Below, piece after piece: positions 3,943-63,006 of a DNA stretch of 64,000 nt; within the stretch, counting starts at the first letter, position 1, and each line of letters begins with the position of its first letter. Position numbers and translations under genes: made by a program. The notes under the pieces were generated by a model. The model worked only from the letters and a program-made list of their open reading frames with translations. It had not been told where the DNA came from and made no database searches. This DNA comes from an uncultured Candidatus Saccharibacteria bacterium (GTDB lineage Bacteria > Patescibacteriota > Minisyncoccia > UBA6257 > 2-01-FULL-56-20): NCBI GenBank assembly GCA_964484655.1, contig CAZAFA010000001.1, forward strand, positions 164,742 to 228,741, given 5' to 3'.

Positions 3943-3985
3943 ATCCGAGAGCCTACCAGCTGCAGCGGCGTGATACCATGCGCCC

Positions 3986-4447
3986 ATGCTCGCTCCCGGA
4001 GACTCCGCCCCCGACTTCTCGCTCCCCGACCAGGACGGGAAGACGCACGCGCTCGCCGACTACCGCGGCCGCCGCGTCCTGCTCTACTTCTATCCCAAGG
4101 ACGACACGCCGGGATGCACGACCGAGGCATGCGCGATCCGGGACGCGTTCGCCTCCTTCGAGGACGGCGGCATCGCCGTGCTCGGCATCAGCGCGGACAG
4201 CGCCGCACGACACCGGAAGTTCGCCGACAAGTACGCGCTCCCCTTCCCGCTCCTGTCCGATCCGAAGCACGCGACGATCGAGCGGTATGGCGCTTGGCAG
4301 GAGAAGCGCATGATGGGCCGTACGTACATGGGCATCGCCAGGATCTCGTACCTGATCGGACCCGACGGACTGATCGAGCGCGCGTACGGCTCCGTGAAGC
4401 CCGCCGAGCACGCCGGCGAGGTGCTTGCCGACGCCGCGGCTTCGTGA
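3986..4447 (+). CDS. bcp: peroxiredoxin Bcp (thiol peroxidase)
   Basis: 153 aa; [19 protein letters not shown] active-site motif typical of Bcp/PrxQ. Confidence 0.9.
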
Positions 4448-35408: not shown

Positions 35409-37094
35409 TTACGCAGCCTGCGCGAGGGCCACGCCGACCGCCTCGCGGGCGAACCGGTACGCTGGGGTACGGTCCGTCCGTGAGATTTTCTTCCACCACG
35501 GGAGCCGGCGGAGGATGTCGTCGTCGAACGACAGGACGACCTGGCGCGCCTCGTGGTTGACGTTGAACCCCGAACGCTGCCAGCAGAGGAACTCCATCTG
35601 CCGCAGGTTCGACAGGTGCGTCGTGCCCACGTTGAAGCCGAGCGGCACCACGTACTGCAGCGTCTCTGGTTCCACTTTTTGACCGAGGTAGCGGTCGTAC
35701 ACGCGGAGCGTGTCATGCGCAATCAGCCCGAAGTCCTGCGCCAGGCTCTCCGGCATCGGCTTGTCGTACTGGTAGAACCCCAGGTACGGCGTGAGCAGGG
35801 TGCGCTCGTTGCTCGAGCAGACGTGCCGCTGGATCTCACGCCAGGTCCTGAAGGACATCAGGCGCGCGAACCGCACGACGGCGTTCTCGAACAGCGGCGG
35901 GAGCCGATCGTGGTCCCCGCGCGGCTCGAAGAGTCCCGCCTTCTCGAGCATCAGCTCGACGTCGCCTCCGCCGAAGCCGAGGAATCCCAGCCCGTCCGCG
36001 ATGGCGCGCTCGGCGTCCTCGTGCGTCCACGGCGTGAGCAGGCTTCCCGGCTTACCCACCAGCCCCTTGAACGCGCCCCAGTCGAGGTAGCGCGCTTGAG
36101 CCTGTTCCCACGGAGTCGGCTCGAGGTGCTGCGCGAACTGCCCGAGACCGGACTGAGCGAGCTCGTCGAGCAGCAGCTCGGCGAGCGCCGTCGTCTCGGA
36201 AAGCCCTTCCAGCAGCAGGCACTTGATCAGCGACCTGAGCGCCTCGCCGGATACCGCGCAGCCGACCGACGTATAGGTCGCGGCCGGCAGGGCGTTCGCC
36301 AGGACGTCGCACACTTCCCCGAAGATGGGTCCGCGTGGAACGTCCGGGTAGAGCCCCTGGAGGTAGTCCGTGAAGGATTCCGCCTGTCCGGTATAGACAT
36401 CGGCGCATCCGCGCAGCAGCGCCTCGAGGTCGCCCTCGACGGCGAAGCCGGCCGCGGTCAGCTCGTCGCCGACCGGGTACCAGGCTGCCGTACGCATGTC
36501 CACGTAGCGCGTGGAAAGCTCGATGTAGCCGGCACCGACGCGCGCGTGCTCGAGCGCCTTGGCGGCGAGGGTCGAGACCTGCTCGAAGCAGGCGATGACC
36601 GTCCCCATCCGGGCAATCGAGTTGTGCCCGTACTTGTCGAGATAGGTCTCGAGCAGGCGGCGGGTCCTCGCGCCGTTGGCGAACCGCTTCAGGTACTCGG
36701 GATCGCTGCACAGGTTCTGGCGGAAGTTCAGCCAGATGCCCCAGGAATCCGGGTCGAAACCGATGAAGTCATCGAGCGACGCGAATCCCTTCGCCTTGAT
36801 GAACGCCTCCGTGTCGCCGGCGAACTCCTGCCCGACGGCAGGGTGCTCGCTCGCGAGGAAGCTCAGGGCGATGACGTCCGCGAAGACGCCGCGCAATCCT
36901 CGTGCGTTCTTGATGCGGGAGTACATCGCGAGCATCGATGCCGCGACGTTGCTCGGCAGGTTCTCCACGAGGAAGACGTGCCGGTCCAGGTTGCTGAAGA
37001 AGGGGCGCAGGGCCGTCTTCTCGTTCTCGGTAAAGCCGTACGGGACCGTACGGCGGACGTGCTCGCGCGCGAACGCGAGCTGCGCTTCTGTCAT
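35409..37094 (-). CDS. ThyX-family (flavin-dependent thymidylate synthase)-like protein, unusually long/tandem
   Basis: 561 aa; EHARVGAGYIELSTRYV resembles the RHR..S..S.RY ThyX signature; second copy-like region (EIQRHVCSSNERT; LSNLRQMEFLCWQR...HEARQV); AGGAG RBS; adjacent to tmk. Confidence 0.45.
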   Translation of the reverse strand: MTEAQLAFAREHVRRTVPYGFTENEKTALRPFFSNLDRHVFLVENLPSNVAASMLAMYSRIKNARGLRGVFADVIALSFLASEHPAVGQEFAGDTEAFIKAKGFASLDDFIGFDPDSWGIWLNFRQNLCSDPEYLKRFANGARTRRLLETYLDKYGHNSIARMGTVIACFEQVSTLAAKALEHARVGAGYIELSTRYVDMRTAAWYPVGDELTAAGFAVEGDLEALLRGCADVYTGQAESFTDYLQGLYPDVPRGPIFGEVCDVLANALPAATYTSVGCAVSGEALRSLIKCLLLEGLSETTALAELLLDELAQSGLGQFAQHLEPTPWEQAQARYLDWGAFKGLVGKPGSLLTPWTHEDAERAIADGLGFLGFGGGDVELMLEKAGLFEPRGDHDRLPPLFENAVVRFARLMSFRTWREIQRHVCSSNERTLLTPYLGFYQYDKPMPESLAQDFGLIAHDTLRVYDRYLGQKVEPETLQYVVPLGFNVGTTHLSNLRQMEFLCWQRSGFNVNHEARQVVLSFDDDILRRLPWWKKISRTDRTPAYRFAREAVGVALAQAA

Positions 37095-39542: not shown

Positions 39543-39860
39543 CTATCGGGTCAGTAGCAGCCCGACGAACGCAGCCAGCGTGATGCCGAAGAAGATGAGG
39601 AGCGTCCACTGGAACAGCGAGACCGCGTCCTTCTTGCGCCCGTCCAGGTACCAGAGCACCGGCTTGCCGAGCATCAGGTAGGCGGTCAGCGCCGCGGAGA
39701 ACACGAACAGCGAGATCATCGCGATCGGCGTCAGCCACGTGTCCGGCGTATTCTCGCCGAATACCTTGCCAGCGTTCTGCAGGAACGTGCCGACGCCGGC
39801 GATGTAGAGCGCCGTCCCTGACGCGTTGAGCGCCGCCTGCCTGACGATGCCGCCCTTCAT
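39543..39860 (-). CDS. small membrane protein (three TM helices), hypothetical
   Basis: 105 aa starting MKGGIVRQ.. directly after the rpoD stop (1-nt overlap). Confidence 0.45.
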   Translation of the reverse strand: MKGGIVRQAALNASGTALYIAGVGTFLQNAGKVFGENTPDTWLTPIAMISLFVFSAALTAYLMLGKPVLWYLDGRKKDAVSLFQWTLLIFFGITLAAFVGLLLTR

Positions 39861-41335
39861 CAGATGACGTTCTCGAAGCCCTCGAGGCCGGCGGCCTTGT
39901 CGTGCTCGCGGATCTTCTCGAGCGCCTTCGCCTCGATCTGACGGATACGCTCGCGCGTGACGCCGAACACCTTCCCCACCTCCTCGAGCGTGTGATAGAC
40001 GCCGTCCTCGAGGCCGAAGCGCATGTTGATGATCTTCTGCTCGCGCTCGGTCAGGGTGCCGAGGATGTCGCGGATGAGGTCGCGGAGGTACGCCCGCGCG
40101 GCGAGCTGGTTCGGGGCCGGGTTGCGCTCGTCCGGGATGAAGTCCGCGAGGACCGAGTCCTCCTCGTCGCCGACCGGCGTCTCGATGGAGAGCACGTCCT
40201 GGCTGATCTTCTGGATGTGGCGCACCTTGTCCACGTCGACGCCCATCTCCGCGGCGATCTCCTCCGCGAGCGGCTCGCGTCCGAGATCCTGCATGAGCGA
40301 GCGGCGGACCTGCGTGTACTTCGAGATGACCTCGACCATGTGCACCGGGATGCGGACGGTGCGGGACTGGTCCGCTAGCGCGCGGTTGATCGCCTGACGG
40401 ATCCACCAGGTCGCGTACGTGGAGAACTTGAAGCCCTTCCGGTAGTCGAACTTGTCGACGGCGCGGCTCAGGCCGATGTTCCCTTCCTGGATGAGGTCGA
40501 GGATGGACAGGTGCGGCGTGCGGTTCACGTAGCGCTTGGCGATCGAGACCACGAGGCGGAGGTTCGCCTTGATCAGGAGCTGGCGCGCCTCCTCGTCGCC
40601 GGCCTCGGCGCGCTTGGCGTAGTCCTGCTCCTGCTGCTTGGTAAGCAGCGCCGTGCGGCCGATCTCCTTGAGGTACGCCTGCACCGCGTCCGGAACCTCG
40701 GTGCCGAGATCGAGCGCGTTGGCGAGCTCCGCCTCGGAGACGAGCTCCTTGTCGTCGATGAGGTTGCCCGACTCCACGACCTTCAGGCCCGCGTTCGCGA
40801 GCGCGTCATAGACCGTATCCAGGATGTCGATGTCCTCCTCGATGGACGGGAAGTACGAGAGTATCTCCGAGTCCGTGACGAAGCCGCGCGGCTTGCCGCG
40901 CTCGATGAGCTCACGGAGCGCTCCGGCCTGCTCCTCGCTGAGGTGCTCGAGGCTGACCTCGGCGCCCTCCTGGCGCGCGCCCTTCCCCTTCTCCGCACCC
41001 TCGGGCAGCTTCGGCGCGTTGAGCGGACGGCCGCCGACGCGTACCGGCGGCAGCTTCTTCGCCGGCGCCTTCTTGACGGTCTTCTTTGGCGCGGCCTTCT
41101 TGGCGGCCTTCTTGACGGTCTTCTTCGGCGCAGCCTTCTTCTTGGCGGGAGCCTTCTTTGCCGTCTTCTTCGAAGCTTTCTTCACGCTCTTTTTGACGGC
41201 CTTCTTCGGCGCCGCTTTCTTGGCGGCCTTCTTGATTACTTTCTTGATCGATTTCTTCGCCGCTGCCTTCTTCGGGGCAGCCTTGCGAGAAGAAGATTTA
41301 ACCGTCTTCTTAACGGCCTTCTTGGCGGCAGGCAT
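39860..41335 (-). CDS. rpoD: RNA polymerase sigma factor RpoD with Lys/Ala-rich repetitive N-terminal extension
   Basis: regions 1.2-4.2 ([12 protein letters not shown], rpoD box [35 protein letters not shown], region 4 HTH); about 170 aa of AKKAxKK repeats at the N-terminus. Confidence 0.92.
40985..41335 (-). repeat. imperfect tandem coding repeats (AKKAVKK-type) within rpoD
   Basis: recurring cttcttggcggccttcttgacggtcttcttcggcgc-like units visible on the plus strand. Confidence 0.5.
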
Positions 41336-41374
41336 GCGGAAATCCTACACCGCAGGCCCTACAACGGCAATATC

Positions 41375-43051
41375 CTACCGCTTTGGCAAGGCTACGAGGG
41401 CAGCAAGGGCCTCGTCGAGCGCTTCCTGGTCCCCCGCGCGCTCCGCGTCCGCGATGACGGCGGACAGCCGCGCCCGCTCCTCGGCGAGATATACCGCCTC
41501 GAGGTCCTGGAGCAGGCGGCGCAGCGTCGCGCCGCCGAGCACCGACGAGACGCCGGTCACGATCCGCTGCAGCGCCGCGTCGAGCTCCTCGTCCTCGCTC
41601 TGCGCCTGGTCCGCGCGGAGCAGCTCGAGCACCTTCTGTGCGGAGGACGGCAGGTGATGGCTCTGCACCTGCCCGAGCGAACGCTCGTGGTAGGCGGCGG
41701 CGAGCACCTGCTCGGCGAGCACGTCCCACTTCGTGGTCTCGCGCGCAGCGGCAGCCGGGCGCGGCGCCTCGGGACGCGTCTGAGGCTCGTCGCGGCGGGC
41801 GATCCTCTCCTCCTGGAGGATGCCTTCGGCGATCCCCGTCTTGCGGCTGAGGAACTGGAGCCACTTCGCGCGCTGAACCGGGCTCGGGATCTCCGCGACC
41901 AGGGCCAGGATGCGGCGCAGGACGCCGATCGCCTCCGCGGAACGGAAATCCATGCCTGCGTCGATGAGGCGGTCCACCCATGCCTCGACGACCGGCACCG
42001 CCTCCTCGACCGCTGCCGGCACCGCCTCAGGCTCCTCGAGCGCCAGATCGGCGGCATCCTTGCCGCGCGGCCAGCGGACGACGCGCACGTCGAGCCCGGC
42101 GCGCAGCGCGAGCTGCGCCGCCTTCTCTGCCGCGATCCAGCCGGCGTCGTCGGCATCGAAGGCCAGGTCGAGGGCGGGAGCGCTCCGCGCGAGCAGCGAC
42201 ACGTGGTCCTGCGTGAACGCGGTGCCGCTGAGCGCCACGACGTTCTTCACGCCGGACTGCCAGCATGCGACCGCATCCACCTGCCCCTCGACGAGGACGG
42301 CGCGGCCGGCGGAGCGGATCGCGTCTTTCGTCTTCCCGTAGGCGTACAGGACCTTGCCCTTGGTGAAGATCGGCGTCTCGGGGCTGTTGACGTACTTGCC
42401 GAGGTTGCCCGTGTCGAACTGCGGGTGGATGCGCCCGGTGAAAGCCACCGGCTTCCCGAGCGCGGACCAGATCGGGAACATGAGGCGGGCGCGGAAGCGG
42501 TCCCGCAGGCCGTACTCGGTCTTCACGGACAGGCCCGCGCGGACGAGGTCCTCGCCGTCGAAGCCCTCGAGCATAAGGTGCTTGGTGAGCAGGTCAGGAT
42601 CCGGCGGCGCCCAGCCGACGTCGAAGAAGTCCGCGGCCTCGGGAAGGATGCCGCGCTCGATGAGATACTTCATCGGGATCTCGTCGGTGACGTGCTTGCG
42701 GAAGAACTCCGCGGCAGCTGCGTTCGCGCGGTACAGCACGCCGGTGAAGCGCTCCTCGGCGGGACTGACCCTGCGGAGCTCGACGCCCGCCTTCTCGGCG
42801 AGTAGCCGGAGCGCGTCGCGGAACTCCACGTGCTCGTACTCCTGCACGAAGGCGAAGATGTCCCCGCCCTTGCCGCAGCCGAAGCACTTCCAGGAGCCGC
42901 GGTCCGGCGTGACCACGAAGCTCGGCGTCTTCTCGCCGTGGAACGGGCACCGGGCCTTGAAGTTGCGGCCTGCCGGCGCGAGCTCGATATAGCCCCGGAT
43001 GACGGTCGCGACGTCCAGCTTCTCCTTGATGAGCTCCACGGGGGTCGCCAT
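41375..43051 (-). CDS. dnaG: DNA primase
   Basis: zinc ribbon CPFHGEKTPSF...CFGCGKGGD; TOPRIM region; ATG start at MATPVEL (the ORF track begins at an upstream GTG). Confidence 0.88.
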   Translation of the reverse strand: MATPVELIKEKLDVATVIRGYIELAPAGRNFKARCPFHGEKTPSFVVTPDRGSWKCFGCGKGGDIFAFVQEYEHVEFRDALRLLAEKAGVELRRVSPAEERFTGVLYRANAAAAEFFRKHVTDEIPMKYLIERGILPEAADFFDVGWAPPDPDLLTKHLMLEGFDGEDLVRAGLSVKTEYGLRDRFRARLMFPIWSALGKPVAFTGRIHPQFDTGNLGKYVNSPETPIFTKGKVLYAYGKTKDAIRSAGRAVLVEGQVDAVACWQSGVKNVVALSGTAFTQDHVSLLARSAPALDLAFDADDAGWIAAEKAAQLALRAGLDVRVVRWPRGKDAADLALEEPEAVPAAVEEAVPVVEAWVDRLIDAGMDFRSAEAIGVLRRILALVAEIPSPVQRAKWLQFLSRKTGIAEGILQEERIARRDEPQTRPEAPRPAAAARETTKWDVLAEQVLAAAYHERSLGQVQSHHLPSSAQKVLELLRADQAQSEDEELDAALQRIVTGVSSVLGGATLRRLLQDLEAVYLAEERARLSAVIADAERAGDQEALDEALAALVALPKR

Positions 43052-43135
43052 GGCGCGAGTATAGGACACCGGGCCCCAGGCCGCATTGAAGGCCGCATGA
43101 GGCCTGTGTATACTCGCATCCGCCCTTGAAAACCT

Positions 43136-43222: not shown

Positions 43223-43257
43223 CCGATAGCAAGACGCGCCCTCTGGGGCGCGTCTTG

Positions 43258-44196
43258 CTATGCCTTCCTTTCACGGATCAGCCTCGTGAGGAGCGGACGC
43301 CTCTTGCGATGCTCGTCTGCGACCACCATCTGCCTGATGCTCTCCGGATCGCACCGCCTGATGTCCGCGATCATCTCGATGAGCTGGTCCGCGGTGCTCC
43401 GCGGCATCCTGCCCTGGCGGACGATCTCGCTTTCCAGCGCGTCCTTGAGGTACTGCGCGCTGAGGATGTAGTGACGGCGGATCTGGCTCTCTATCCCTGA
43501 CGGAATCTGCTTGCCGAAGTACGAGCATTGGATGAGCGCCTGCACCATGGAGCGCATCCCGAGCGGCGACTTCTGGATAGCCTCCTTGTCGGAGGCGCGA
43601 TTCTTCCATGCGTCCATGAGACTATCAAGCTCCTCCTGACCGTACCGCACCACGACCTGCGGCACCTTCTGCGCGCCGTACGTGCTCGATGCCCGGTCTA
43701 CGCAGAACTGGTACTTCATCTGCGCGTCTGGATGATGATCCACCCTGTAGGCGATGTCCTTGAACTTCTCTTCGTACTGGTCGAGTCCGGTCGTCAGGTC
43801 GAGCCCGAGCTTCGCCTTCATCATCGGCGCGCCGTCGACGTCCGCTCCGCGCACGGCGGCGACCACGTCGTAGCCGTTCCTCTTGTCGTCGTAGTTGCTC
43901 CACTTGAGCGCGTGGAAGTCCTGCCCGAACCACCGGGCCTGGTCGATGCCGTAGTGTGTCAGCGCCTCCTGGAAGACCGAGTACTTCTTGCCGGCGTCGT
44001 CGGCGTTCTCGTACCGGGGTGCCGACCGATACTCCTTCACGCCCTCGTCGCCGTTGTAGTGAAGCTTGATATCGAAGTCGTTGAGCTCCTCGGCGGCGAG
44101 GTAGGACTTGCTGCTCTCGTAGACCTCGTTGAGCTTGGCCTCCGGACTCTCGGTGCTTATGAGGGCCTTCGCCGCGAAATTCCCGTCGCCTGGCAT
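43258..44196 (-). CDS. hypothetical protein (312 aa), no recognisable domain
   Basis: long ORF with unbiased, Lys/Asp/Tyr-containing composition, GC somewhat lower than neighbours; ends about 35 nt from the tRNA-Tyr 3' end. Confidence 0.55.
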   Translation of the reverse strand: MPGDGNFAAKALISTESPEAKLNEVYESSKSYLAAEELNDFDIKLHYNGDEGVKEYRSAPRYENADDAGKKYSVFQEALTHYGIDQARWFGQDFHALKWSNYDDKRNGYDVVAAVRGADVDGAPMMKAKLGLDLTTGLDQYEEKFKDIAYRVDHHPDAQMKYQFCVDRASSTYGAQKVPQVVVRYGQEELDSLMDAWKNRASDKEAIQKSPLGMRSMVQALIQCSYFGKQIPSGIESQIRRHYILSAQYLKDALESEIVRQGRMPRSTADQLIEMIADIRRCDPESIRQMVVADEHRKRRPLLTRLIRERKA

Positions 44197-46177: not shown

Positions 46178-46630
46178 TCAGGCCTCGTACCGCGCGAACT
46201 TCGCGATGCGGCAGTTCTCGCCGGTCTTGGCGATGAGCTCGTTGAGGAGGTCGCCGACGGTCTTGCTGTCGTTCTTCACGAACGGCTGCGCGAGGAGCTC
46301 GTCCACGTCGGCCGGGTTCATGGCGGCGATGTGCATCACCACGTCCTTGGCGAGGTCCTGGAACGGCTCGGAGCGGACGACGAAGTCCGTCTCGGCGCGC
46401 ATGTCGAGCATCACGCCGACGCGGCCGTTGTGCACGTACGTCTCGATGAGAGCCGCGCCGGTCTCGCGCTCGGAGCGCTTCCCTGCCTTCACGCCCGCCT
46501 TCTCAGCGAGGACCGCGAGCGCCTTGTCGTAGTCGCCGTCTGCCTCCTTGAGCGCGGTCTTGGCGTCCATGACGCCGGCGCCGGTCTGCTCGCGGAGCTG
46601 CTGGATAAGTTCCATCGTGATCTCTGCCAT
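46178..46630 (-). CDS. tsf: elongation factor Ts, minimal form
   Basis: MAEITMELIQQLREQTGAGVMDAKTAL N-terminal domain; 150 aa. Confidence 0.85.
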   Translation of the reverse strand: MAEITMELIQQLREQTGAGVMDAKTALKEADGDYDKALAVLAEKAGVKAGKRSERETGAALIETYVHNGRVGVMLDMRAETDFVVRSEPFQDLAKDVVMHIAAMNPADVDELLAQPFVKNDSKTVGDLLNELIAKTGENCRIAKFARYEA

Positions 46631-46657: not shown

Positions 46658-47389
46658 CTACTCCGCGGGAGCCGGGGCCGGTGCGCGCTCGATCGCCTCC
46701 TGCACCTTCTCGAGGAACCAGGAGATACTCTTGCGACCCTGCACGTTGCCCGGGACCAGGTACGTCACGCCATCCGGAGCCGCGTCGACGTTGCCGAAGG
46801 CGACGACCGGGATGCCGAGCTTCTTAGCCTCGAGGACCGCAGTGCGATGCTCGCTCGGGTCGATGACCAGGAGCGCGTCAGGGGCGCGGAGGAGGTTCTC
46901 GAACGAGCCGAGGTTGCTCTCGAGCTTCTGGAGGAGCTGCTGCGCGGCGGTGCGCTCCTTCTTCACGTACTTGTCCATGGCGCCGGAGGTCAGGTCGGCG
47001 CGGAGCTTCTTGAGGTGCGCGATGCGCGCGGAGATCATCGGGAAGTTCGTCATCAGGCCGCCGATCCAGCGGTTGGTGACGCTGGGCATGCCGGTCTCCT
47101 GGAGGAAATCCTGGAAAAGGTCAGCGAAGGCCGGCTGGGTGCCGACGAACAGCACGTTCTTGCCCTGCTGCTTCATGCTCGCGAGGAACGCGAGGGCCTT
47201 CTCGAGCACATCGAGGGTCACGTTGAGGTTGACTACCTCCATGCCGTTGCGGGTATAGAGCACCGCGGACTTCATGCGCGGGTTGCTGTTCCGCTTGCTC
47301 CGCCCGTAGAAGACGCCCGCCTCGATCGCCTCCTTCAGGGAAGCCTCGAGCTTGGGGTCGACGGCGGTCGCGTTCTTCGTTTCAGACAC
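46658..47389 (-). CDS. rpsB: 30S ribosomal protein S2
   Basis: FLQETGMPSVTNRWIGGLMTNF and flanking S2 motifs; 243 aa. Confidence 0.93.
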   Translation of the reverse strand: MSETKNATAVDPKLEASLKEAIEAGVFYGRSKRNSNPRMKSAVLYTRNGMEVVNLNVTLDVLEKALAFLASMKQQGKNVLFVGTQPAFADLFQDFLQETGMPSVTNRWIGGLMTNFPMISARIAHLKKLRADLTSGAMDKYVKKERTAAQQLLQKLESNLGSFENLLRAPDALLVIDPSEHRTAVLEAKKLGIPVVAFGNVDAAPDGVTYLVPGNVQGRKSISWFLEKVQEAIERAPAPAPAE

Positions 47390-47422
47390 GAGTGGCAGTC
47401 TACGCGTAAATCACGCCCAGTG

Positions 47423-48472
47423 TCAAAGGGTTTCGGCGATGGTTCCCGCCGCGAGGACGGCTCCCTCGGCGCCGTAGCAGGCGGCGAGCTGCCCGGGCGC
47501 TGCAGTCGGATGCGGCGCAACGAACCGGAGCTCGCCCGTAGCCGGATGGAAGGTCGCCGGCGCGAGCGCCTGGCGGTACCGCGTGCGGGCGAGCACCTCG
47601 ACCGGCTCGTGTCCGAGTCCGTGCGTCACCAGGTCGGTCAGGCGCGCGCCGGAGATCGTCAGCGACCCGTCGGTTACCTCAGCGACGGTGAGCGTGTTGG
47701 CTGCAATGTCGCGGGAGGCGACGTAGTACGGCGGGGTCGGCGCGGAGCCGTGCCGGCGCGTGACGCGGAAGCCGGACCGCTGCCCGACGGTGTAGAACCA
47801 GGCGCCGTCGTGCTCCCCGATCCGCTCTCCGTCCGGACCGACGACTATCCCCGCTTTGACCGGCAGCCGCGTACGGAGGTAGTCCGAGAGCGAGACCTTG
47901 CCGAGGAAGCAGATGCCCTGCGAGTCCTTCTTCGTCGCGGTATGCAGGCCTGCTTCCGCTGCGATCTTCCGCACCTCGGGCTTCGTGAGCTCCCCGAGCG
48001 GGAAGACCGCGTGCGCGAGCTGCTCTTCCGTGAGAAGCGCGAGGAAATACGACTGGTCCTTCTCCGCGTCGAGACCGGCCGCGAGGAAGTGGCGGCCATC
48101 CCGTTCCACGACACGCGCATAGTGGCCGGTCGCGACAGCATCCGCGCCTGCCGCGCGCGCCGCCTCGAGGAAGGCGCCGAACTTGATGACGCGGTTGCAG
48201 GCGACGTCGGGGTTCGGAGTGAGGCCGTGCGCGTACCCGGCGACGAGCGGCTCGACGACGGACTTCCGGTACTGCTCCTCGAAGTCCCAGGAGTAGAACG
48301 GGATGCCCAGGTGCGCGGCCACCTTCCGCGCATCCTCGGCGTCGGCGTCGGCGCAGCCATCCAGGTTCATGCAACGAAGGAAGACGCCTGCGACGTCGTG
48401 CCCTTGCTCCTTGAGCAGGTACGCCGCGGCGGACGAGTCGACGCCGCCGGAGAGGCCTACGAAAACGCGCAT
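47423..48472 (-). CDS. mnmA: tRNA 2-thiouridine(34) synthase MnmA
   Basis: MRVFVGLSGGVDSSAAAYLL PP-loop; catalytic Cys residues; 349 aa. Confidence 0.9.
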   Translation of the reverse strand: MRVFVGLSGGVDSSAAAYLLKEQGHDVAGVFLRCMNLDGCADADAEDARKVAAHLGIPFYSWDFEEQYRKSVVEPLVAGYAHGLTPNPDVACNRVIKFGAFLEAARAAGADAVATGHYARVVERDGRHFLAAGLDAEKDQSYFLALLTEEQLAHAVFPLGELTKPEVRKIAAEAGLHTATKKDSQGICFLGKVSLSDYLRTRLPVKAGIVVGPDGERIGEHDGAWFYTVGQRSGFRVTRRHGSAPTPPYYVASRDIAANTLTVAEVTDGSLTISGARLTDLVTHGLGHEPVEVLARTRYRQALAPATFHPATGELRFVAPHPTAAPGQLAACYGAEGAVLAAGTIAETL

Positions 48473-48513
48473 GCGGCCATTGTGGCCGTATTACGCCCGC
48501 CTTGCATAGGGCC

Positions 48514-49077
48514 CTACTTGACCCGCTCCGTGTACTCGCCGGTCTCAGTGTTCACGCGGATGGTCTCCCCTGCCTCGATGAACTGCGGCACCGCAATCTG
48601 CGCGCCGGTCTCGAGCGTGACGAGCTTGTTGCCGCCGGCGGCCGTGGCTCCCTTGATCACGGGCGGCGCCTCCTTCACGAGCAGGTCCATCTTTATCGGG
48701 AACTTCACCGAGATGATCTTGTCGTTGAAGGTGCGCGCCTCGACAGTCGTGTTCTCCTTGGCGAAGCGACCCTGGTCACCGACGACGTCCGCCGCGAGCG
48801 AGAAGCGGTCCTTAGGATTCTTCGGGTCCGCGAACCAGAACTCGCCCTTGTTCTGGTACAGGAAGCTGTATTCCTTCCGATCCACGTCCGCCTCCTCGAA
48901 GTTGTCGCTCGCCGTGAAGTTGCGGTCGATGACCTTGCCGTTGATGAGGTTGCGCATCTTGGTCTGCATGACCGCCTTGCGCTGCTGCATACGGAGGAAG
49001 CCGGATTCGACGACCTCGTACGGCTGGCCCTCGTAGACGAAGACGACGCCCTTCCTGAGTTCCGAGTATGAGAGCAT
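48514..49077 (-). CDS. efp: elongation factor P
   Basis: start at MLSYSEL..; KOW and OB domains (..VVFVYEGQPYEVVE..). Confidence 0.92.
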   Translation of the reverse strand: MLSYSELRKGVVFVYEGQPYEVVESGFLRMQQRKAVMQTKMRNLINGKVIDRNFTASDNFEEADVDRKEYSFLYQNKGEFWFADPKNPKDRFSLAADVVGDQGRFAKENTTVEARTFNDKIISVKFPIKMDLLVKEAPPVIKGATAAGGNKLVTLETGAQIAVPQFIEAGETIRVNTETGEYTERVK

Positions 49078-51317: not shown

Positions 51318-51950
51318 CTAGGACTCAAACTCTCGACAAACTTCCCTCGTGAACTCCCCCACGCGCGTCCTAGTCAGTCCAGCCAAATATGACCCTGCGC
51401 TCAGTACCTCGCCTAGATCACGCGCTAGCGAGCGGATATAGACACCCGGTCCCGTCACATACCGGACCTGCGCTTCTGGCCAGGAGTAGTCGAGGACCTC
51501 GGCCTCGAATACCGTCACCTCGCGCGGCTCCATCGCCACTTCCTTCCCCTGCCGCGCGAGATCGTACGCACGCTTCCCGGCGACATGAACTGCCGAGAAC
51601 GCTGGCGGCACCTGCATCTGTTTCCCTACCTGCCGCGAGACCGCTTCTTCTATTTGCTCGCGCGTCGGAACCGAGACGACCTCGCGCTCGGTTATCGGAC
51701 CCTCGGCATCGTCCGTGGCGCTCGTCGCGCCGAAGCGGATCTTCGCGACGTACTCCTTGTCCGCGCCCACCGCCTCGTGGAGCTTCTTCGTGGCTTCCCT
51801 CCCGACTGCCACCACGAGTATCCCCTCCGCGAGCGGGTCCAGCGTCCCGGCGTGGCCTACCTTCTCGCCCTTGTTCGCGCGACGGATCGCGCCCAGCGTC
51901 CTGAACGAGCTTACGCCTTTCGGCTTCCAGATCGCGAACGTCTCAGCCAT
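51318..51950 (-). CDS. truB: tRNA pseudouridine(55) synthase TruB, short form
   Basis: KPKGVSS...GHAGTLDPLAEGILVV catalytic-Asp motif; 210 aa. Confidence 0.88.
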   Translation of the reverse strand: MAETFAIWKPKGVSSFRTLGAIRRANKGEKVGHAGTLDPLAEGILVVAVGREATKKLHEAVGADKEYVAKIRFGATSATDDAEGPITEREVVSVPTREQIEEAVSRQVGKQMQVPPAFSAVHVAGKRAYDLARQGKEVAMEPREVTVFEAEVLDYSWPEAQVRYVTGPGVYIRSLARDLGEVLSAGSYLAGLTRTRVGEFTREVCREFES

Positions 51951-52710
51951 GTACGCGTGCAGCCTCGATGCACAGGAACAGCGGGAACTCCGCGCGGGCG
52001 CGGTTCTCAGCCTCGGCGCGCGGTCCCGGCTCGCTCCGCCGGTTGCTCGTCCACTCCTCGAGACGGACGATGCCGAGCCCGGTCTTGCTCAGGGCCTTCG
52101 CGTAATACTGAAGCGGACGGTGGAACGAGAGCGTGTACCGGTCCGGGTCCGAACCGGGATGCGTCTGGATCCGCTCGCGCAGCTCGGAGAGGTACCGGTC
52201 CTCGCGGCGGTACTGCACGGAGCCGTCCGGCGACCAGTCCCAGTCGCTGTGCTTCGGGATGCGGAACGCCGGGTGGTTGAGGACGATGACGAGCCTCCCG
52301 TCCTCCTTGAGCACGCGGGATGCCTCGCGAATCGCGGCGGCCGCGTCCTCGATGTTCTGCAGCGCGAGCACGATCGTCGCGCGATCGAAGGAGGCGTCCG
52401 GGACGCCGCGCAGGTCGGCGGCGTCGCCGACGCGGTACTCCGGACCGCCCTTCGCCTCGCGCGCGATCTTGATCAGGTCCGATCCCGCGTCGATGCCGAG
52501 CACCTCAGCGCCTTCCTTGGCGAAGGCGCGCGAGAAGTACCCCTGCCCGCAGGCGATGTCGATGAGATGCATCCCCGGCTGCGGCGCCACGATGCGCAGC
52601 AGGTTCGGGAGGATCACCTCCTCCTGGTACGTGCCGGGCTTGCCGAGCAGGTCGTCGTACCAGGCCGCGTCGCGGCCCCACGAGGTCTCCTTAGGTCCTG
52701 GCTTGGGCAT
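51943..52710 (-). CDS. class I SAM-dependent methyltransferase
   Basis: LIDIACGQGYF (motif I) and downstream acidic motif II. Confidence 0.75.
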   Translation of the reverse strand: MPKPGPKETSWGRDAAWYDDLLGKPGTYQEEVILPNLLRIVAPQPGMHLIDIACGQGYFSRAFAKEGAEVLGIDAGSDLIKIAREAKGGPEYRVGDAADLRGVPDASFDRATIVLALQNIEDAAAAIREASRVLKEDGRLVIVLNHPAFRIPKHSDWDWSPDGSVQYRREDRYLSELRERIQTHPGSDPDRYTLSFHRPLQYYAKALSKTGLGIVRLEEWTSNRRSEPGPRAEAENRARAEFPLFLCIEAARVHG

Positions 52711-53653
52711 GTTCCAAAGCTACCGCACGGAACTCCGCTGCGGAATCGCACGTCATGAGACGCTCGCGGATCTCGCTGGCTCCTTCGAAGCCGTGCACGA
52801 GGCCCTTCACGTGCTTCCTGAGCACCGAGAGCGAGCGGAACTCCCCGTACCGGGCCTCGAAGCGGTCCGCGAGGTCGGCCAGAACCAGGAGCCGCTCCCC
52901 GAGCGGCACGTCCGCGGTCTCGCGGTCCGGATCGAAGAACCAGAAGTTGCCGAATATCGCGCGGCCCACCATCGCGCCGTCGCAGCCGGATTCCCGGACG
53001 CGGCGGACGCCGTCCGCATAGCTCTCGACGTCGCCGTTGCCGATGAAGGTCACGCCCTTCTCCCGCACCGCGGGCGCGAGGTCGCGGATGCGGTCCCACT
53101 TCGCCGGCACCTTTGAGAGCTCCTTCACCGTGCGCGCATGGAGCGTGATGGCGCGCACGCCGCTACCGGCAAGCGCCGGGATCCAGTCGTCGGCGACGTC
53201 GCGGTCGAAGCCGAGCCGCGTCTTCACCGAGACCGGCAGTCCGCCCGCGCCTTCGATCGTCGCGGCGACGAGGTCCAGGATCCGCTGCCAGTCCTTGAGG
53301 AGCGCACCGCCCTTGCCGTTCTTGACCACCGTCCGGTCCGGGCAGCCGGTATTGAGGTCCACGCCAGCGAACCCCAGCTCCTTGGCGAGCGCGGCCGCAT
53401 CGCGGAACTTCTCCGGGTCGTCGCCCCAGATCTGCACCGCGATGCGCTCCTCGCCCACGTAGCGCTGCAAATAGCGGCGGACGATCTTCTCCCGCGACTT
53501 CGGATGCGCGAGCCCGTCCACCGAGGTGAACTCGGTGAACATCAGGTCCGGCTCCCCGCAGGCGGCCACCGTCTCGCGGAAGGCGGCGTCGGTGACCTCG
53601 TGGAGCGGGGCCAGGAGCATGAGCGGGCGGTCCTTCGGCTGCCAGATATCCAT
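52691..53653 (-). CDS. dus: tRNA-dihydrouridine synthase (Dus family)
   Basis: TIM-barrel FMN-binding pattern; DLNTGCP catalytic Cys; K..R motifs; 320 aa. Confidence 0.85.
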   Translation of the reverse strand: MDIWQPKDRPLMLLAPLHEVTDAAFRETVAACGEPDLMFTEFTSVDGLAHPKSREKIVRRYLQRYVGEERIAVQIWGDDPEKFRDAAALAKELGFAGVDLNTGCPDRTVVKNGKGGALLKDWQRILDLVAATIEGAGGLPVSVKTRLGFDRDVADDWIPALAGSGVRAITLHARTVKELSKVPAKWDRIRDLAPAVREKGVTFIGNGDVESYADGVRRVRESGCDGAMVGRAIFGNFWFFDPDRETADVPLGERLLVLADLADRFEARYGEFRSLSVLRKHVKGLVHGFEGASEIRERLMTCDSAAEFRAVALEHAQART

Positions 53654-55798: not shown

Positions 55799-56999
55799 CG
55801 GTGACGGTTGCCTCGATCGTACCATCGGCGAGGCGTGCGTGCATGCGGCTGCCAATGGGCAGCGCGCGCACGGAACGGACGGCCTTCCCGTCCCCGCCGC
55901 AGATCACCGCGTACCCGAGACGGAGCATGCGTCCCGGGTCGACGAGCTCCAGGTCCCGCTCCCAGGCGGCAATCAGGTCCTGCGCGCGCCTGAGCGCGGC
56001 GCCGAACCTGATGCGCGCTTCCGCGAAGCGTCGCTCCGGCGCCTCGACGATCTCCGCGAGCGCGCCGCGCAGGGCGAGGCTGTCCCGGGCGATCCGCTCG
56101 CGGACGCGGTGCACGAGCACGTGGCTGCGGCCGCGCAGGCGCTCCGCGCCACGCAGGAGCCGCTCGTCGGCGGCGAACCAGGAGCGATTCACCTCGAGCG
56201 CCGCGATGCTCGGCGTGGACGTAGAGAGGTCAGCGGCGAGGTTCGCGATGGGCACGTCGCGGTCATGGCCGATCGCAGCGATGACGGGCACCGGGATCGC
56301 TGCGATGGAGCGCGCCACCTCCTCGTTGTTGAAGGCCTGCAGGTCCTCGAGCGAACCGCCGCCGCGCATGACCACGAGCACGTCGATGCTCTCCGCGTTC
56401 GCGCGGAACCAGCGGAGCGCCTTGAGGATGCTCGGCACCGCGTGCATGCCCTCGACGCGCGCGTCGTGCATGCGGATGCGGTACCCGCGCCGGTCCAGGT
56501 TGCGCCGGAAGTCGTCGATGACGGCGCCCTGCCGGCTCGTGACGATGCCGATACGCTTCGCGCAGAGCGGGATCGGCAGCGCGCGATCGAAGAGACCCTC
56601 GGCCTGGAGGTCGCGCTTGAGCTTCTCGTAGGCAGCGCGGAGCGCGCCCTCGCCCACGGCTTGCACGGCCTCGACCTGGAAGGAGAAGCTCCCCTTCCGC
56701 GGGGCGACGCGCGGCACGCCGCCGACGCGGATCTCGCTGCCCTGGACGACCAGATGCCCGAACATGCGCAGGCGCATCGCCGGGATGAAGCAGCCGAGGA
56801 CGCCCTCGGCGCCCGTGCTGTCCTTGAGCGAGAAGTACGTCCCGAACGGGTACGACCGCACCTCGGTGACCTCGCCCTGCACGATGCCGCCGAGCTCCTC
56901 AAGCGCGCCGTTGAGCGTCCGCAGGTACGCGGAGACCGGCACCGCCACATCGACCGGTCCCGGCCCGTCCTCGTACTCGATGACGTAATCGTCCTCCAT
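55776..56999 (-). CDS. xseA: exodeoxyribonuclease VII large subunit
   Basis: OB-fold N-terminus and catalytic middle domain (RGGGSLEDL); 407 aa. Confidence 0.85.
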   Translation of the reverse strand: MEDDYVIEYEDGPGPVDVAVPVSAYLRTLNGALEELGGIVQGEVTEVRSYPFGTYFSLKDSTGAEGVLGCFIPAMRLRMFGHLVVQGSEIRVGGVPRVAPRKGSFSFQVEAVQAVGEGALRAAYEKLKRDLQAEGLFDRALPIPLCAKRIGIVTSRQGAVIDDFRRNLDRRGYRIRMHDARVEGMHAVPSILKALRWFRANAESIDVLVVMRGGGSLEDLQAFNNEEVARSIAAIPVPVIAAIGHDRDVPIANLAADLSTSTPSIAALEVNRSWFAADERLLRGAERLRGRSHVLVHRVRERIARDSLALRGALAEIVEAPERRFAEARIRFGAALRRAQDLIAAWERDLELVDPGRMLRLGYAVICGGDGKAVRSVRALPIGSRMHARLADGTIEATVTDAREEDR

Positions 57000-57015
57000 G
57001 GCCCCGAGTATACCG

Positions 57016-58179
57016 CTACGCGCGCAGGCGCTTCGGCAGCCGCGCGCGGAACTCCGCGAGCTTCCCGTCGCGGATCGCCTGGCGCATCTCCGCCATGAAG
57101 ACGTTGAAGAACCAGATGTTGTGCAACGTCACCAGGCGCGGCGCCTCCGGATCCTTCGCGAGGAAGCGCTCCTTGACGGCCGCCTTGGTGGCGCCAGACC
57201 CGCAAGCTGGGCAGCGGCACCCTTTCTCGAGCGGCTCGTGCCGGTCGAGCATCGCGCCGCGCGTGACGTCGTAGTAGCCGGCGTGCGTCCAGACACGGCC
57301 GTGCCTGCCCTCGCGCGTAGGGATGACGCAGTCGAAGGTATCGATGCCGCCCAGGACGCCGTCGACGAGGTCGTCGAGCTCGCCCACGCCGAACAGGTGC
57401 CGCGGCCGGTCGTTCGGGAGGTGGTCGGTCGCCCAGCGAATCATGCTCGAGGTCTCCGCCTTCGTGCCGCCGTACGCGTCGCCGTACGTGCCGCCTATGG
57501 CGTACCCGTCGAACGGAAGCACGCCGAGCGTCTTCGCGGAGTAGCGCCGCAACTCCTCGTACGCGCCGCCCTGCACCACGGCGTAGAGCGCCTGGCGCTC
57601 GTTACGGGCCGCGAGCGCGCGCAGGGCCCAGGCGTGTGTGCGCCGCACGGACTCCCTGGTGTAGGCCTCGTCATGGAAGGGCGCCGAGGGCTCGTCGAGC
57701 GCCACCGCGATGTCAGCGCCGAGCTGCTCCTGGATGCGCAGGGAGAGTTCCGGGTCGAGATACTGCTCCGCCCCGCCGTAATCCGGGTCCTGGAAGGTCA
57801 CGCCGCCTTCCTCGACGCGCACGACGCCGGTGACGTCGCTCTCCTGGCCGCCGCGGCGCAGGCCCTGGTCGCGGAGCGTCCCGAGGCTGAAGACCTGGAA
57901 GCCGCCCGAGTCGGTCATGGTCACGCCGTTCCATCCAAGCGCCTCGTTGAGACCCGGGAACTCATTGAGCTCGTCGCCGAGGCTCTGCCAGAGGTGGTAC
58001 GTGTTCGAGATCACCATCTGCGTGTTGGTCGTCGCGAGGTCGCCCGACTCGAGCGCGCGAACGGACGCCTTCGTCGCGACGATGACGTAGCCCGGCGTCT
58101 CGACGATGCCGTGCGGGGTCTCCATCACGCCCGTCCGGGCGCGGCTGTCCGGGTCTGCCCCGGTAATCTCGAACCGCAT
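57016..58179 (-). CDS. tgt: queuine tRNA-ribosyltransferase
   Basis: start at MRFEIT..; GFQVFSLG; zinc site CxCxxC...H (CRCPACGSG). Confidence 0.9.
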   Translation of the reverse strand: MRFEITGADPDSRARTGVMETPHGIVETPGYVIVATKASVRALESGDLATTNTQMVISNTYHLWQSLGDELNEFPGLNEALGWNGVTMTDSGGFQVFSLGTLRDQGLRRGGQESDVTGVVRVEEGGVTFQDPDYGGAEQYLDPELSLRIQEQLGADIAVALDEPSAPFHDEAYTRESVRRTHAWALRALAARNERQALYAVVQGGAYEELRRYSAKTLGVLPFDGYAIGGTYGDAYGGTKAETSSMIRWATDHLPNDRPRHLFGVGELDDLVDGVLGGIDTFDCVIPTREGRHGRVWTHAGYYDVTRGAMLDRHEPLEKGCRCPACGSGATKAAVKERFLAKDPEAPRLVTLHNIWFFNVFMAEMRQAIRDGKLAEFRARLPKRLRA

Positions 58180-58826
58180 CAGACCTCGGCGAGCTCCGGG
58201 CCGAGCACGCAATACGCAATTTCGCGCTCCTTCGCATACGCCTCGAACTGCGCGTCGCCGTTCGCGCGGAAGCCGTCGATCAGGAACCCGTCATGGACCG
58301 GGAACGCGACCTCGGGCTTGAGACGATCGAGAAGCGTCGCCAGGTGCGGACGCGTGCCCCAGGGCGCTGCGGTCGGGAGCGCGAGGACGCGCGTACCCGC
58401 CCAGGCGTCGAGCGCGACGGACGTGCTGTCGCCAGTGACGACGAGCTCGCCGCTGATGCGGAACGCGGCGTTCTGCGGCACCGGGCCGAGCACCGGGTCG
58501 TGACCGGCTATCAGTACCCCGACCTGCGTGCCGAGAATCTCAAAATCCGCGAAGCCGTGGTCGGTTGCGCCGATGCCCTTCCCGCGCAGCAGGTCGACGA
58601 TATCGGAGCTCGCGTACACCGGAATGCCGGGATGCGCCGCGAGAGCCCACTGGAGCAGGTCCGGATCGAGATGGTCCGCGTGGCTGTGCGTGACGAGGAC
58701 GGCGTCGATACGGTCGCCGAGCGCCGCATCAGGTATCGCGCTCATGCTGCCCGGGTCCAGGAGCAGGCGCGTGCCAGCTCCCGTCTCCACGAGCAGGCAG
58801 CTGTGGCCGAACTTCGCGATCCGCAC
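58179..58826 (-). CDS. MBL-fold metallo-hydrolase
   Basis: THSHADHLD motif; 215 aa. Confidence 0.75.
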   Translation of the reverse strand: MRIAKFGHSCLLVETGAGTRLLLDPGSMSAIPDAALGDRIDAVLVTHSHADHLDPDLLQWALAAHPGIPVYASSDIVDLLRGKGIGATDHGFADFEILGTQVGVLIAGHDPVLGPVPQNAAFRISGELVVTGDSTSVALDAWAGTRVLALPTAAPWGTRPHLATLLDRLKPEVAFPVHDGFLIDGFRANGDAQFEAYAKEREIAYCVLGPELAEV

Positions 58827-58828: not shown

Positions 58829-59329
58829 CTACTCGACGCCGAGGAGCTCGACCTCGAAGTGCAGCGTGCTGCCCGCCGGGATTGATCCCACGGCGCGGTC
58901 GCCGTACGCCAGGCTGGCGGGGATGACGAGCTTGCGGACGCCGCCGACCTTCATACCTACGACGCCAAGGTCCCAGCCGCGGATGACCTGGCCCGCGCCG
59001 AGCGGGAAGGTGAAGGGCGCGCCGCGGTCACGGGACGAGTCGAACTTGGTGCCGTCGTCGAGCGTGCCCACGTAGTGGACGCTGACGGTCTTGCCGGAGA
59101 CGGCTTCGGCGCCGGTGCCGACCTTCACGTCGGTCTTCTCGAGTCCTGCTGCGTTGGTGTCGTTCATGGTGGAAGGTGTGCTGGTGGGTGTGGAGGTCGC
59201 CGCGTTCTCTGGCAGCGGATCGAGCTCGATGCCGCTGCTGGCGGGCTTCATGTTGATCCGGACGATGACGGCGAGGAGCGCGACCCCGATGAGGATCATG
59301 GCCGCGAGGGCGAAACGTGATGCGTTCAT
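58829..59329 (-). CDS. membrane-anchored FKBP-type peptidyl-prolyl cis-trans isomerase
   Basis: N-terminal TM; C-terminal FKBP domain (VSVHYVGTLDDGTKFDSSRDRGAPFTFPLGAGQVIRGWD). Confidence 0.85.
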   Translation of the reverse strand: MNASRFALAAMILIGVALLAVIVRINMKPASSGIELDPLPENAATSTPTSTPSTMNDTNAAGLEKTDVKVGTGAEAVSGKTVSVHYVGTLDDGTKFDSSRDRGAPFTFPLGAGQVIRGWDLGVVGMKVGGVRKLVIPASLAYGDRAVGSIPAGSTLHFEVELLGVE

Positions 59330-59372
59330 AGGTTCGGTATTTGTGCCGCTAGAGCATAGCAGGGGCGGCCGC

Positions 59373-59792
59373 TCAGTGCAGGCGCTCCCCCGGCGGTACC
59401 GGGCGGGTGGGCGCGAGGAGCGCCAGGCCGCCGTCGCCGTCCGCGGCGAGGATCATGGCGCGGCTCTCGAGGCCCATGATCGGACGCGGCGGCAAGTTCG
59501 CGACGAAGGCGAACTGGCGTCCGGGCAGGCCGAGGGGGTCAACATGCTTGGCGATGCCCGAGACCACCTGGCGCGGCTCGTCTTCGCCGAAGTCGACCGT
59601 GAGCCGCAGGAGCTTCTCCGAACCCTCGACCGGCTCGGCGCTGACGACCGTGCCCACGCGCAGCTCGACGGACGCGAACGTGTCGAACGGGACGGTCGCC
59701 AGGGCCGGCTCCGCGGGCACGGCCTTCTCGGTGACGACGTTCTCCTTCTCGGCCGTGTCACCGAGAAACGGCAGGCGCTGGAATATGCTCAT
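59373..59792 (-). CDS. csaA: tRNA-binding protein (CsaA/Trbp111-like OB-fold)
   Basis: LRVGTVVSAEPVEGSEKLLRLTVDFGEDEPRQVVSGI pattern typical of the CsaA / MetRS C-terminal domain. Confidence 0.8.
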   Translation of the reverse strand: MSIFQRLPFLGDTAEKENVVTEKAVPAEPALATVPFDTFASVELRVGTVVSAEPVEGSEKLLRLTVDFGEDEPRQVVSGIAKHVDPLGLPGRQFAFVANLPPRPIMGLESRAMILAADGDGGLALLAPTRPVPPGERLH

Positions 59793-59860
59793 GGGCGAAT
59801 GAAACTAGCCTTTACCGCGATTGTCCACCCGGGGCGGCGCGTGCGATACTCTGCGCGTCT

Positions 59861-59931
59861 TGCGGGATCGTCTAATGGTAGGACACCGGCCTTTGGAGCC
59901 GAGAATCTAGGTTCGAGCCCTAGTCCCGCAA
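59861..59931 (+). tRNA. tRNA-Gln (anticodon TTG), 71 nt, U1-A72, no encoded CCA
   Basis: acceptor tgcggga/tcccgca; short D-arm; anticodon loop cuUUGga; T-arm ctagg-ttcgagc-cctag; one C-A mismatch in the anticodon stem. Confidence 0.6.
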
Positions 59932-59997
59932 CACTATAGACATTTGGAAGTAAATCCTTATAAGTATTCATAGACTCCGATTGAAAACGAGGTTTCT

Positions 59998-62574: not shown

Positions 62575-63006
62575 CTAGGCGCGCTTCCGTCCGGCCTTCT
62601 TCGCAGCCGCCTTCTTCGCCACCTTCCTCTTCGGCGCCGCCTTGCGCGGGGCCTTCGGGGCGAACTGCTTCTTGATCCCGGTCCAGTATCCCTGGAGCTC
62701 CTTCACCATACCTGCGATCTCTGCCGAGCTCACGTCCTTGACGTTCGCGTACCGCTCCGCGGCGGCGTCGATGAGCGCGAAATAGGTCTCCTTGTCGATC
62801 TCCGGCAGCTTCTCGATCTGCTCGAGGATCTCCCCCTTCGCCTTCAGCATCCAGCCGCGGACCGCCTTGCGGCGCTTCGGCGCGTCCTTCCCGTAGAGGA
62901 AGTAGGCGCCGGCCGCCGCGGCGACGAGCGCCGCGCCGATGCCGGCGCCGACCGCGATCTGCGCGTTGCTGATTCCCTTCTGCTTGTTAGATGAGTTCTT
63001 TGCCAT
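62575..63006 (-). CDS. membrane-anchored protein with Lys/Ala-rich C-terminal tail
   Basis: start at MAKNSSN..; single TM; C-terminal PKAPRKAAPKRKVAKKAAAKKAGRKRA. Confidence 0.45.
   Translation of the reverse strand: MAKNSSNKQKGISNAQIAVGAGIGAALVAAAAGAYFLYGKDAPKRRKAVRGWMLKAKGEILEQIEKLPEIDKETYFALIDAAAERYANVKDVSSAEIAGMVKELQGYWTGIKKQFAPKAPRKAAPKRKVAKKAAAKKAGRKRA

Follow-up and report, generated by a model that had tools for sequence, protein, structure and literature searches.

Lysine repeats are over-represented in DNA-binding proteins and have been linked to GC-rich genomes; the Streptomyces housekeeping sigma factor HrdB and the RpoD of Bordetella pertussis are among their carriers (PMC5714199). 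In Streptomyces, Strzalka et al. (2017; PMC5714199) showed that the lysine repeats of TopA bind DNA and make the enzyme processive. More broadly, experiments have shown DNA binding and a stabilised enzyme–DNA complex for the C-terminal repeats of actinobacterial TopA and HupB/HupS. A basic extension has also been studied in the SigA of Mycobacterium tuberculosis (Mtb). Deletion of its disordered 205-residue N-extension lowers the steady-state maximal velocity (Vmax) about 100-fold and leaves the half-maximal effective concentration (EC50) unchanged, and the authors suggest an effect on holoenzyme recycling, not on DNA affinity (2025 preprint, PMC11888270). The same preprint recalls that a 179-residue truncation of Mtb SigA fails to complement in vivo. 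Here, we describe the rpoD gene on a 64,000-nucleotide (nt) stretch of DNA from an uncultured Candidatus Saccharibacteria bacterium (GenBank assembly GCA_964484655.1, contig CAZAFA010000001.1, positions 164,742 to 228,741), referred to below as the window. Its product, the primary sigma factor RpoD, starts with a polycationic tail of lysine and alanine that precedes a canonical region 1.1. Lysine repeats on primary sigma factors are already known, and the window case is an unusually dense, N-terminal version of them.

The tail and the protein that carries it

The rpoD gene lies on the minus strand, a detail missing from the preliminary description of this DNA, and its position and domains are given in Table 1. 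The Pfam models for regions 1.1, 1.2, 2, 3, and 4 all score above their gathering thresholds, with region 2 at residues 254–326, region 3 at 335–410, and region 4 at 425–477. The top NCBIfam matches are RpoD equivalog models, which fall below their cut-offs (NF006666 at 441.7 bits against 572; TIGR02393, RpoD_Cterm, at 342.6 against 354), as expected for a divergent phylum. Nearest among solved structures are the Firmicute SigA chains 7l7b, 7ckq, and 8x6f (E down to 8e-111). In the alignments to 7ckq and 8x6f, query residues 140–141 fall on residues 18–23, and the protein is thus a primary sigma factor of compact SigA type that carries about 134 additional N-terminal residues. The core itself is like that of Firmicute SigA, running from region 1.1 to region 4 without a non-conserved insert. 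The primase gene dnaG lies immediately upstream, and this gene order, with a gap of about 40 nt, is kept in the relatives' loci. The full set of regions and this housekeeping dnaG–rpoD context agree with a group 1 (RpoD/SigA) sigma-70 factor.

The first 95 residues comprise 41 Lys, 1 Arg, 25 Ala, 7 Pro, 7 Val, 6 Ser, and 4 Thr, with no Asp or Glu, and carry a net charge of +42. Lysine accounts for 43% of the tail but for 5.5% of RpoD residues 203–491, with alanine at 26% and proline at 7%. Given the Asp plus Glu frequency in the remainder of RpoD, a 95-residue run free of both has a probability of about 3e-8; together with the lysine excess, this places the composition of the tail beyond chance. 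The tail raises the net charge of the whole protein from -16 to +26. It is followed by a linker containing an 18-residue motif that is kept in the eight closest relatives, and then by region 1.1, whose net charge becomes -13 if residues 135–215 are counted. The preliminary description had reported a Lys/Ala repeat tail of about 170 residues directly before region 1.2. The tail is real and its motifs are present; its length, however, is about 95 residues (117 with part of the linker, as follows from the coordinates given in that description), and both the 39-residue linker and region 1.1 stand between it and region 1.2.

Pairs of lysine recur every 4–5 residues, giving 18 KKxx(x) units; AAKKAVKK occupies residues 3–10, and a 13-residue motif occurs twice within residues 69–89. 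The imperfect tandem DNA repeats earlier proposed to encode the tail are borne out by Tandem Repeats Finder, which detects arrays at 41054..41323 with a period of 39 nt (4.3 copies, 69% matches, score 151) and further imperfect periods of 27 and 12 nt. All copy spacings are multiples of three, and the 39-nt unit encodes the 13-residue repeat.

Codon use is relaxed within the tail. The lysine codon AAA is used for 6 of its 41 lysines, against 3 of 255 elsewhere (p = 3e-4); of those 255 lysines, 22 lie in the remainder of rpoD, none of them coded by AAA, and 233, including all three AAA codons, in eight further genes. GCT or GCA is used for 6 of its 25 alanines, against 0 of 38. GC content at third codon positions (GC3) is 0.79 in the tail versus 0.95, and overall tail GC is 56% versus 66%. 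Repeat turnover, selection against perfect DNA repeats, or a need for an unstructured 5′ end are possible reasons for this relaxation.

In an AlphaFold2 model built from a 51-sequence alignment, nearly the whole of residues 1–126 lacks secondary structure and has a predicted local distance difference test (pLDDT) score below 50; the score rises to 81–87 in region 1.1 (about residues 131–190). The tail is therefore predicted to be intrinsically disordered, and it would belong with the disordered polycations: unstructured in the model, charged at net +42, and kept in composition rather than in sequence.

That the tail is translated is very likely. The annotated frame is the sole stop-free sense frame across it, and the one other in-frame start ahead of residue 140, a GTG at codon 51, itself lies inside the repeat. 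With no in-frame ATG, GTG, or TTG between codon 51 and residue 140, no start beyond the repeat could yield a product with region 1.1. All eight of the closest homologues open with MP[AST][AP/G]K and keep N terminus and core in one frame, although between 102 and 149 residues precede their region 1.1 anchor. An origin in misassembly, the other doubt raised by the preliminary description beside that of a downstream start, is also unlikely: the longest exact DNA repeat within the tail is 20 nt, and the same type of tail is found in relatives from independent NCBI, JGI, ENA, and Logan assemblies, with identical copies of one (P0007) on 6 contigs and of another (P0004) on 5.

Resemblances and distribution

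HrdB, whose KKAAA/KKTTA repeats are seen in PDB chain 8k60_F (residues 127–161), resembles the window protein in being the housekeeping sigma factor of a GC-rich bacterium with K/A-rich repeats. Its repeats lie between regions 1.1 and 1.2, however, whereas those of the window protein stand at the extreme N terminus, before region 1.1, and the charge per residue is +0.23 in HrdB against +0.44 in the window tail. A strict regular expression for the motif K1-2(A/T/N)3-5 finds six matches in HrdB and one in the window tail, which does not conform to the strict tandem definition of actinobacterial-type lysine repeats. Its unit is KK followed by two or three residues of A/V/T/S/P/I, which is of the same sequence class as the lysine repeats but denser.

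Mtb SigA shares with the window RpoD a disordered basic N-extension followed by an acidic block. In PDB chain 5uh5_F, the first 103 residues are rich in K/R/A/T/S/P and carry a net charge of +19, and the acidic block that follows carries -46. In this protein the polyacidic segment is much longer and a folded region 1.1 cannot be recognised, whereas the window tail precedes a canonical, folded region 1.1. The Mtb extension also mixes lysine and arginine at +0.18 per residue, and shows neither tandem repeats nor sequence homology to the window tail, whose charge density is about twice that of either HrdB or Mtb SigA. The repeats of TopA and of HupB/HupS (HU with an H1-like tail) are of the same composition class as the window tail, but are C-terminal and belong to other host proteins in Actinobacteria.

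The histone H1 C-terminal domain, Pseudomonas AlgP, and chlamydial Hc2 are likewise disordered polycations rich in Lys, Ala, and Pro, and the composition of the tail agrees with the likeness to H1 and AlgP drawn in the preliminary description. The resemblance is compositional, not homologous, and the tail belongs to neither the H1 nor the Hc2 family. A Pfam scan of the whole RpoD returns sigma-70 domains only, with no globular H1 (Linker_histone) domain. Searched on its own, the tail gives no Pfam match at E<=10 and no PDB match at E<=1, a result that, with the low-complexity correction, is uninformative on homology. The tail of relative P0007 reaches 34 bits against Pfam HC2 (PF07382), below the cut-off of 40.

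Basic N-terminal stretches also occur in the Deinococcota, where RpoD of Truepera and Meiothermus (loci L004, L005, L007, L011, and L017) begins with a segment rich in K/A/T/S; in the Trueperaceae/Truepera loci, this precedes a region 1.1-like helix, as in the window. These tails are sparser, with net charges of +8 to +11 in their best 40-residue windows and acidic residues interspersed. We found no description of them in the literature searched. In view of HrdB, B. pertussis RpoD (PMC5714199), and the basic N termini of Mtb SigA and the Deinococcota, the preliminary description overstated its case in calling such tails unusual on sigma-70.

Conservation was assessed in the 120 best RpoD homologues, which are metagenomic; 116 of them have a recognisable region 1.1 anchor. 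Those with a name are Patescibacteria (Candidatus Liptonbacteria and Pacebacteria), and a scan of a genome collection yielded one locus of the Candidate Phyla Radiation (CPR), from Candidatus Adlerbacteria, at 52% identity. Across the homologues of RpoD and of the second tailed protein described below, the source names are Liptonbacteria, Pacebacteria, Yonathbacteria, Adlerbacteria, Minisyncoccota, and the Patescibacteria group. The net charge before region 1.1 is at least +10 in 113 of the 116; of the three exceptions, two or more seem to be gene calls that were cut short. The segment has a median length of 71 residues and a median net charge of +24; within the tail, the median Lys plus Arg fraction is 0.44 (range 0.30–0.70) and the median Asp plus Glu fraction is 0. 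Many of these tails are rich in S/T/N/R rather than alanine, and the constant feature is positive charge.

Among the eight closest relatives, tail identity is 30–58% (37% for composition-matched shuffles), whereas the core is 91–96% identical. Their tails span 73–120 residues and 11–20 KK pairs; seven of them have 36–43 lysines in 111–120 residues, and the eighth (P0008) has 23 in 73. Repeat length thus varies between related species; the preliminary description had suggested that copy number may vary between strains. Since sequence and length drift while the polybasic charge stays, selection appears to act on charge and composition rather than on sequence. A wider search, taking one representative per 50%-identity cluster, gave 63 sequences with an alignable region 1.1. 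Fifteen of these have pure polybasic tails, and roughly a dozen have long extensions in which K, E, and A are mixed; in about 20, no more than 16 residues precede region 1.1. RpoD of Patescibacteria appears to carry a polybasic N-tail as a rule; no paper on sigma-factor tails in CPR/Patescibacteria was found in the literature searched.

A second protein of the window, 143 residues long, also ends in a K/A-rich tail, as previously noted. The tail forms its last 29 residues (coded by 62578..62664) and ends ...FAPKAPRKAAPKRKVAKKAAAKKAGRKRA. The protein itself has no Pfam match, and two of its homologues match PF12732 (YtxH). A net charge of at least +8 in the last 30 residues is kept in 92 of 120 homologues, and the protein is a conserved, probably membrane-anchored polycation of Patescibacteria. 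The suggestion that K/A tails are a lineage-wide trait therefore holds in part. It stands for RpoD, given its 113 tailed homologues, but a crude scan of about 50 window genes finds K/A tails only on RpoD and the 143-residue protein, with none on UvrA, UvrB, UvrC, DnaG, RecO, XseA, or AlaRS. The trait is thus protein-specific and conserved, not general to the nucleic-acid binders encoded here. A tail of another flavour, the Arg-rich RDVNRMHKARRSRQYQRPRSAPRKRSGGYRGRA, ends the DEAD-box helicase encoded at 2674..3987 (minus strand).

What the tail may do

The most likely role of the tail would be to tether DNA non-specifically by its charge and, at the same time, to counterbalance the acidic region 1.1, a proposal to which we give slightly better than even weight. 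It would act as a salt-sensitive, sequence-independent tether for nucleic acid, most likely duplex DNA, in the manner of the actinobacterial TopA and HupB/HupS repeats. With such a tether, sigma would stay on the nucleoid both when free and when in the holoenzyme, and DNA would be more readily caught or held close to the downstream channel, the site of region 1.1. The charge of the tail would also offset that of the DNA-mimicking, auto-inhibitory region 1.1. The outcome would be more open-complex formation and a higher multi-round output, as reported for the Mtb SigA N-extension. The Ala/Pro/Val flavour of the tail probably comes from the 66% GC genome. Relatives with less alanine keep lysine and fill in with S/T/N/R, a hint that charge, and not only GC-driven composition, is selected. 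Core GARP/FYMINK composition, taken as a proxy for GC to see whether alanine and lysine track it, gave no useful correlation, the RpoD core being too conserved.

Several points weigh against a DNA tether. The proposal is built on composition and analogy, and the low sequence conservation of the tail, its length of anywhere from about 20 to 150 residues, and its relaxed codon bias form a pattern that a weakly constrained low-complexity expansion would also give. The unchanged EC50 of the Mtb SigA deletion, from which recycling was suggested over DNA affinity (PMC11888270), runs counter to it as well. RNA, polyphosphate, or acidic surfaces of proteins would be equally good partners for a tail of such charge, and the lack of such tails on UvrABC, DnaG, RecO, and XseA indicates that they are not a general DNA-binding solution in this organism.

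The tail could instead act inside the protein or the transcription complex, pairing with the acidic region 1.1, with the stretch that links it to region 1.2, or with acidic parts of the surface of core RNA polymerase, and so tuning auto-inhibition, holoenzyme assembly, or sigma recycling, as proposed for Mtb SigA. We consider this unlikely, but it has points in its favour. The basic and acidic blocks adjoin (+42, then -10) and stand in the same order as in Mtb SigA (+19, then -46), for which the data favour recycling over promoter affinity (PMC11888270). Across the 116 homologues, tail charge is also anticorrelated with region 1.1 charge (Spearman rho -0.26, p 0.004), although this correlation is weak, carries no phylogenetic correction, and decides nothing. 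Region 1.1 varies only from -7 to -13, whereas the tails run from +3 to +66, and the tail is thus far above what neutralisation would need. An intramolecular role would, moreover, be compatible with DNA binding.

Alternatively, the peptide may have no specific function, the tail being a largely neutral low-complexity expansion from replication slippage or the by-product of selection on the messenger RNA (mRNA) for an A-rich, unstructured, leaderless 5′ end. Degenerate tandem DNA repeats, fast divergence in sequence and length, relaxed codon bias, lower tail GC, and a probably leaderless mRNA (see below) would all fit. Drift is hard to square, however, with the retention of a polybasic tail in 113 of 116 homologues at 65–93% core identity, with acidic residues nearly nil and a Lys plus Arg fraction of 0.30–0.70, and an mRNA-level requirement would be satisfied by the first few codons rather than 95. 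This explanation seems to us quite improbable.

A shade less probable again is a role on RNA or ribosomes, in which the tail would contact nascent transcripts or ribosomal RNA and serve transcription–translation coupling or act as an RNA chaperone in a cell poor in accessory factors. Polylysine tails bind RNA no less readily than they do DNA, another protein of the window, the DEAD-box helicase, has its own basic, Arg-rich C-tail, and the many leaderless-looking genes would place initiating ribosomes at the promoter. None of this is specific support, though; the characterised K/A-type lysine repeats bind DNA (PMC5714199), and sigma usually departs soon after initiation. Finally, it is very improbable that the repeats lie outside the protein through a misplaced start or faulty assembly: such repeats and low-complexity N termini are classic sources of error, but no positive evidence points that way, and the start codons, conserved N terminus and promoter layout, independent assemblies, and short exact repeats all speak against it.

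A bolder reading would be that the housekeeping sigma factor of Patescibacteria contains a built-in, H1-like nucleoid-binding module and itself acts as a nucleoid-associated protein, the tail being an adaptation peculiar to this lineage within the minimal transcription apparatus of CPR. It would then stand in for accessory DNA contacts or factors that are missing and alter the way in which promoters are located and opened, and a few other conserved polybasic-tailed proteins, such as the 143-residue membrane protein, might act together with sigma. We regard this as distinctly unlikely.

Genomic surroundings and significance

A promoter-like element lies directly upstream of rpoD (Table 1), with its -10 hexamer TAGGAT ending 6 nt ahead of the ATG. 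The same layout is kept in the loci of five high-GC relatives (L031, L033, L035, L036, and L037), in the form TTGCCG-18-TAGAGT or TACAGT, 6–8 nt before the ATG, and the consensus over all six loci is TTGCCG-17/18-TA(G/C)(G/A)(A/G)T. In L036, dnaG ends 356 nt upstream, and hence conservation of the promoter is not due to dnaG coding sequence. A second conserved DNA block, CTTGCCAAGAC-GG-TAGG(A/T)TATTGCC at 41371..41395, overlaps the final dnaG codons and is present in the same five relatives; its retention in L036 suggests that it may be a regulatory site of rpoD rather than a product of coding conservation.

Within the window, TAnnnT stands exactly 6 nt before the start codon in 9 of 39 genes, against 0.08 expected (P about 2e-16), and at 7 nt in two further genes, with the same expectation per offset. 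The -10-like forms at these starts include TAGACT, TATACT, TAGGAT, and similar hexamers. From this signal, the organism seems to use many leaderless mRNAs, rpoD among them, and the 5′ end of the rpoD transcript probably coincides with the ATG at 41335. An AGGA 7 nt upstream of this ATG could be read as a Shine-Dalgarno sequence, but that reading is less well supported than the -10 reading, as the relatives have TAGAGT or TACAGT at this place. No description of leaderless initiation in CPR was found in the literature searched.

Table 1. Positions of rpoD, its domains, and associated features in the window
Feature	Position	Strand	Details
rpoD-type primary sigma factor coding sequence	39860..41335, including stop codon	minus	491 residues, ATG start; open reading frame and Pfam
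Polycationic K/A/P/V tail	41051..41335	minus	residues 1–95; composition, tandem repeats, low pLDDT
Linker	40934..41050	minus	residues 96–134, 39 residues, net charge 0; mostly low pLDDT
Sigma region 1.1	40730..40933	minus	residues 135–202, net -10, folded, helical; Pfam PF03979, E=1.6e-10
Sigma region 1.2	40589..40690	minus	residues 216–249; Pfam PF00140
Sigma regions 2, 3, and 4	39905..40576	minus	residues 254–477; PF04542, PF04539, PF04545
Promoter-like element	41342..41370	minus	-35 TTGCCG 41365..41370, 17-nt spacer, -10 TAGGAT 41342..41347
dnaG primase	41375..43069	minus	directly upstream of rpoD, 39-nt gap; Pfam
Small protein, 143 residues	62575..63006	minus	ATG start; hydrophobic, probable transmembrane N-segment; polybasic C-tail
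Other gene start with TAnnnT 6 nt upstream	3986	plus	
Other gene starts with TAnnnT 6 nt upstream	7143, 10226, 24494, 32343, 44196, 50154, 62033	minus	

Upstream of dnaG, a perfect 16-bp GC-rich palindromic hairpin, ATAGCAAGACGCGCCC-TCTG-GGGCGCGTCTTGCTAT (43226..43261), overlaps the stop end of a 312-residue open reading frame (ORF; 43258..44196, minus strand) and is probably a terminator separating that gene from the dnaG–rpoD pair. Two other proteins, both encoded on the minus strand, are of uncommon size: a ThyX-like protein (35409..37094) is unusually long at 561 residues (569 in L031), with two stretches matching Thy1, and EF-Ts (46178..46630) is very short at 150. Both sizes recur in the relatives' loci.

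The long plus-strand ORFs 40511..42805 and 40824..41657, which run over the tail, were rejected as genes. They are antisense artefacts of GC-rich coding, whose runs of Phe/Leu/Ala or Leu/Arg mirror the lysine codons. Four further long plus-strand ORFs (46847..49036, 51715..52758, 56998..58503, and 59091..59939) have no Pfam match. The pattern of GC over their codon positions is atypical, with 0.74–0.83 at first positions and a GC3 of about 0.73, where confirmed genes have a GC3 of about 0.9. Such ORFs may have been called on the wrong strand or in the wrong frame, or else be foreign or novel genes.

Patescibacteria, or CPR, make up a large share of bacterial diversity, and to our knowledge their transcription machinery has hardly been studied by experiment. 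The idea of basic sigma extensions is not new, and the value of the present case is incremental: after Actinobacteria and Bordetella, the lysine tails of Patescibacteria represent a third lineage with lysine repeats on its primary sigma factors. A polybasic tail fused to an acidic, DNA-mimicking region 1.1 offers a simple and testable handle on transcription in CPR.

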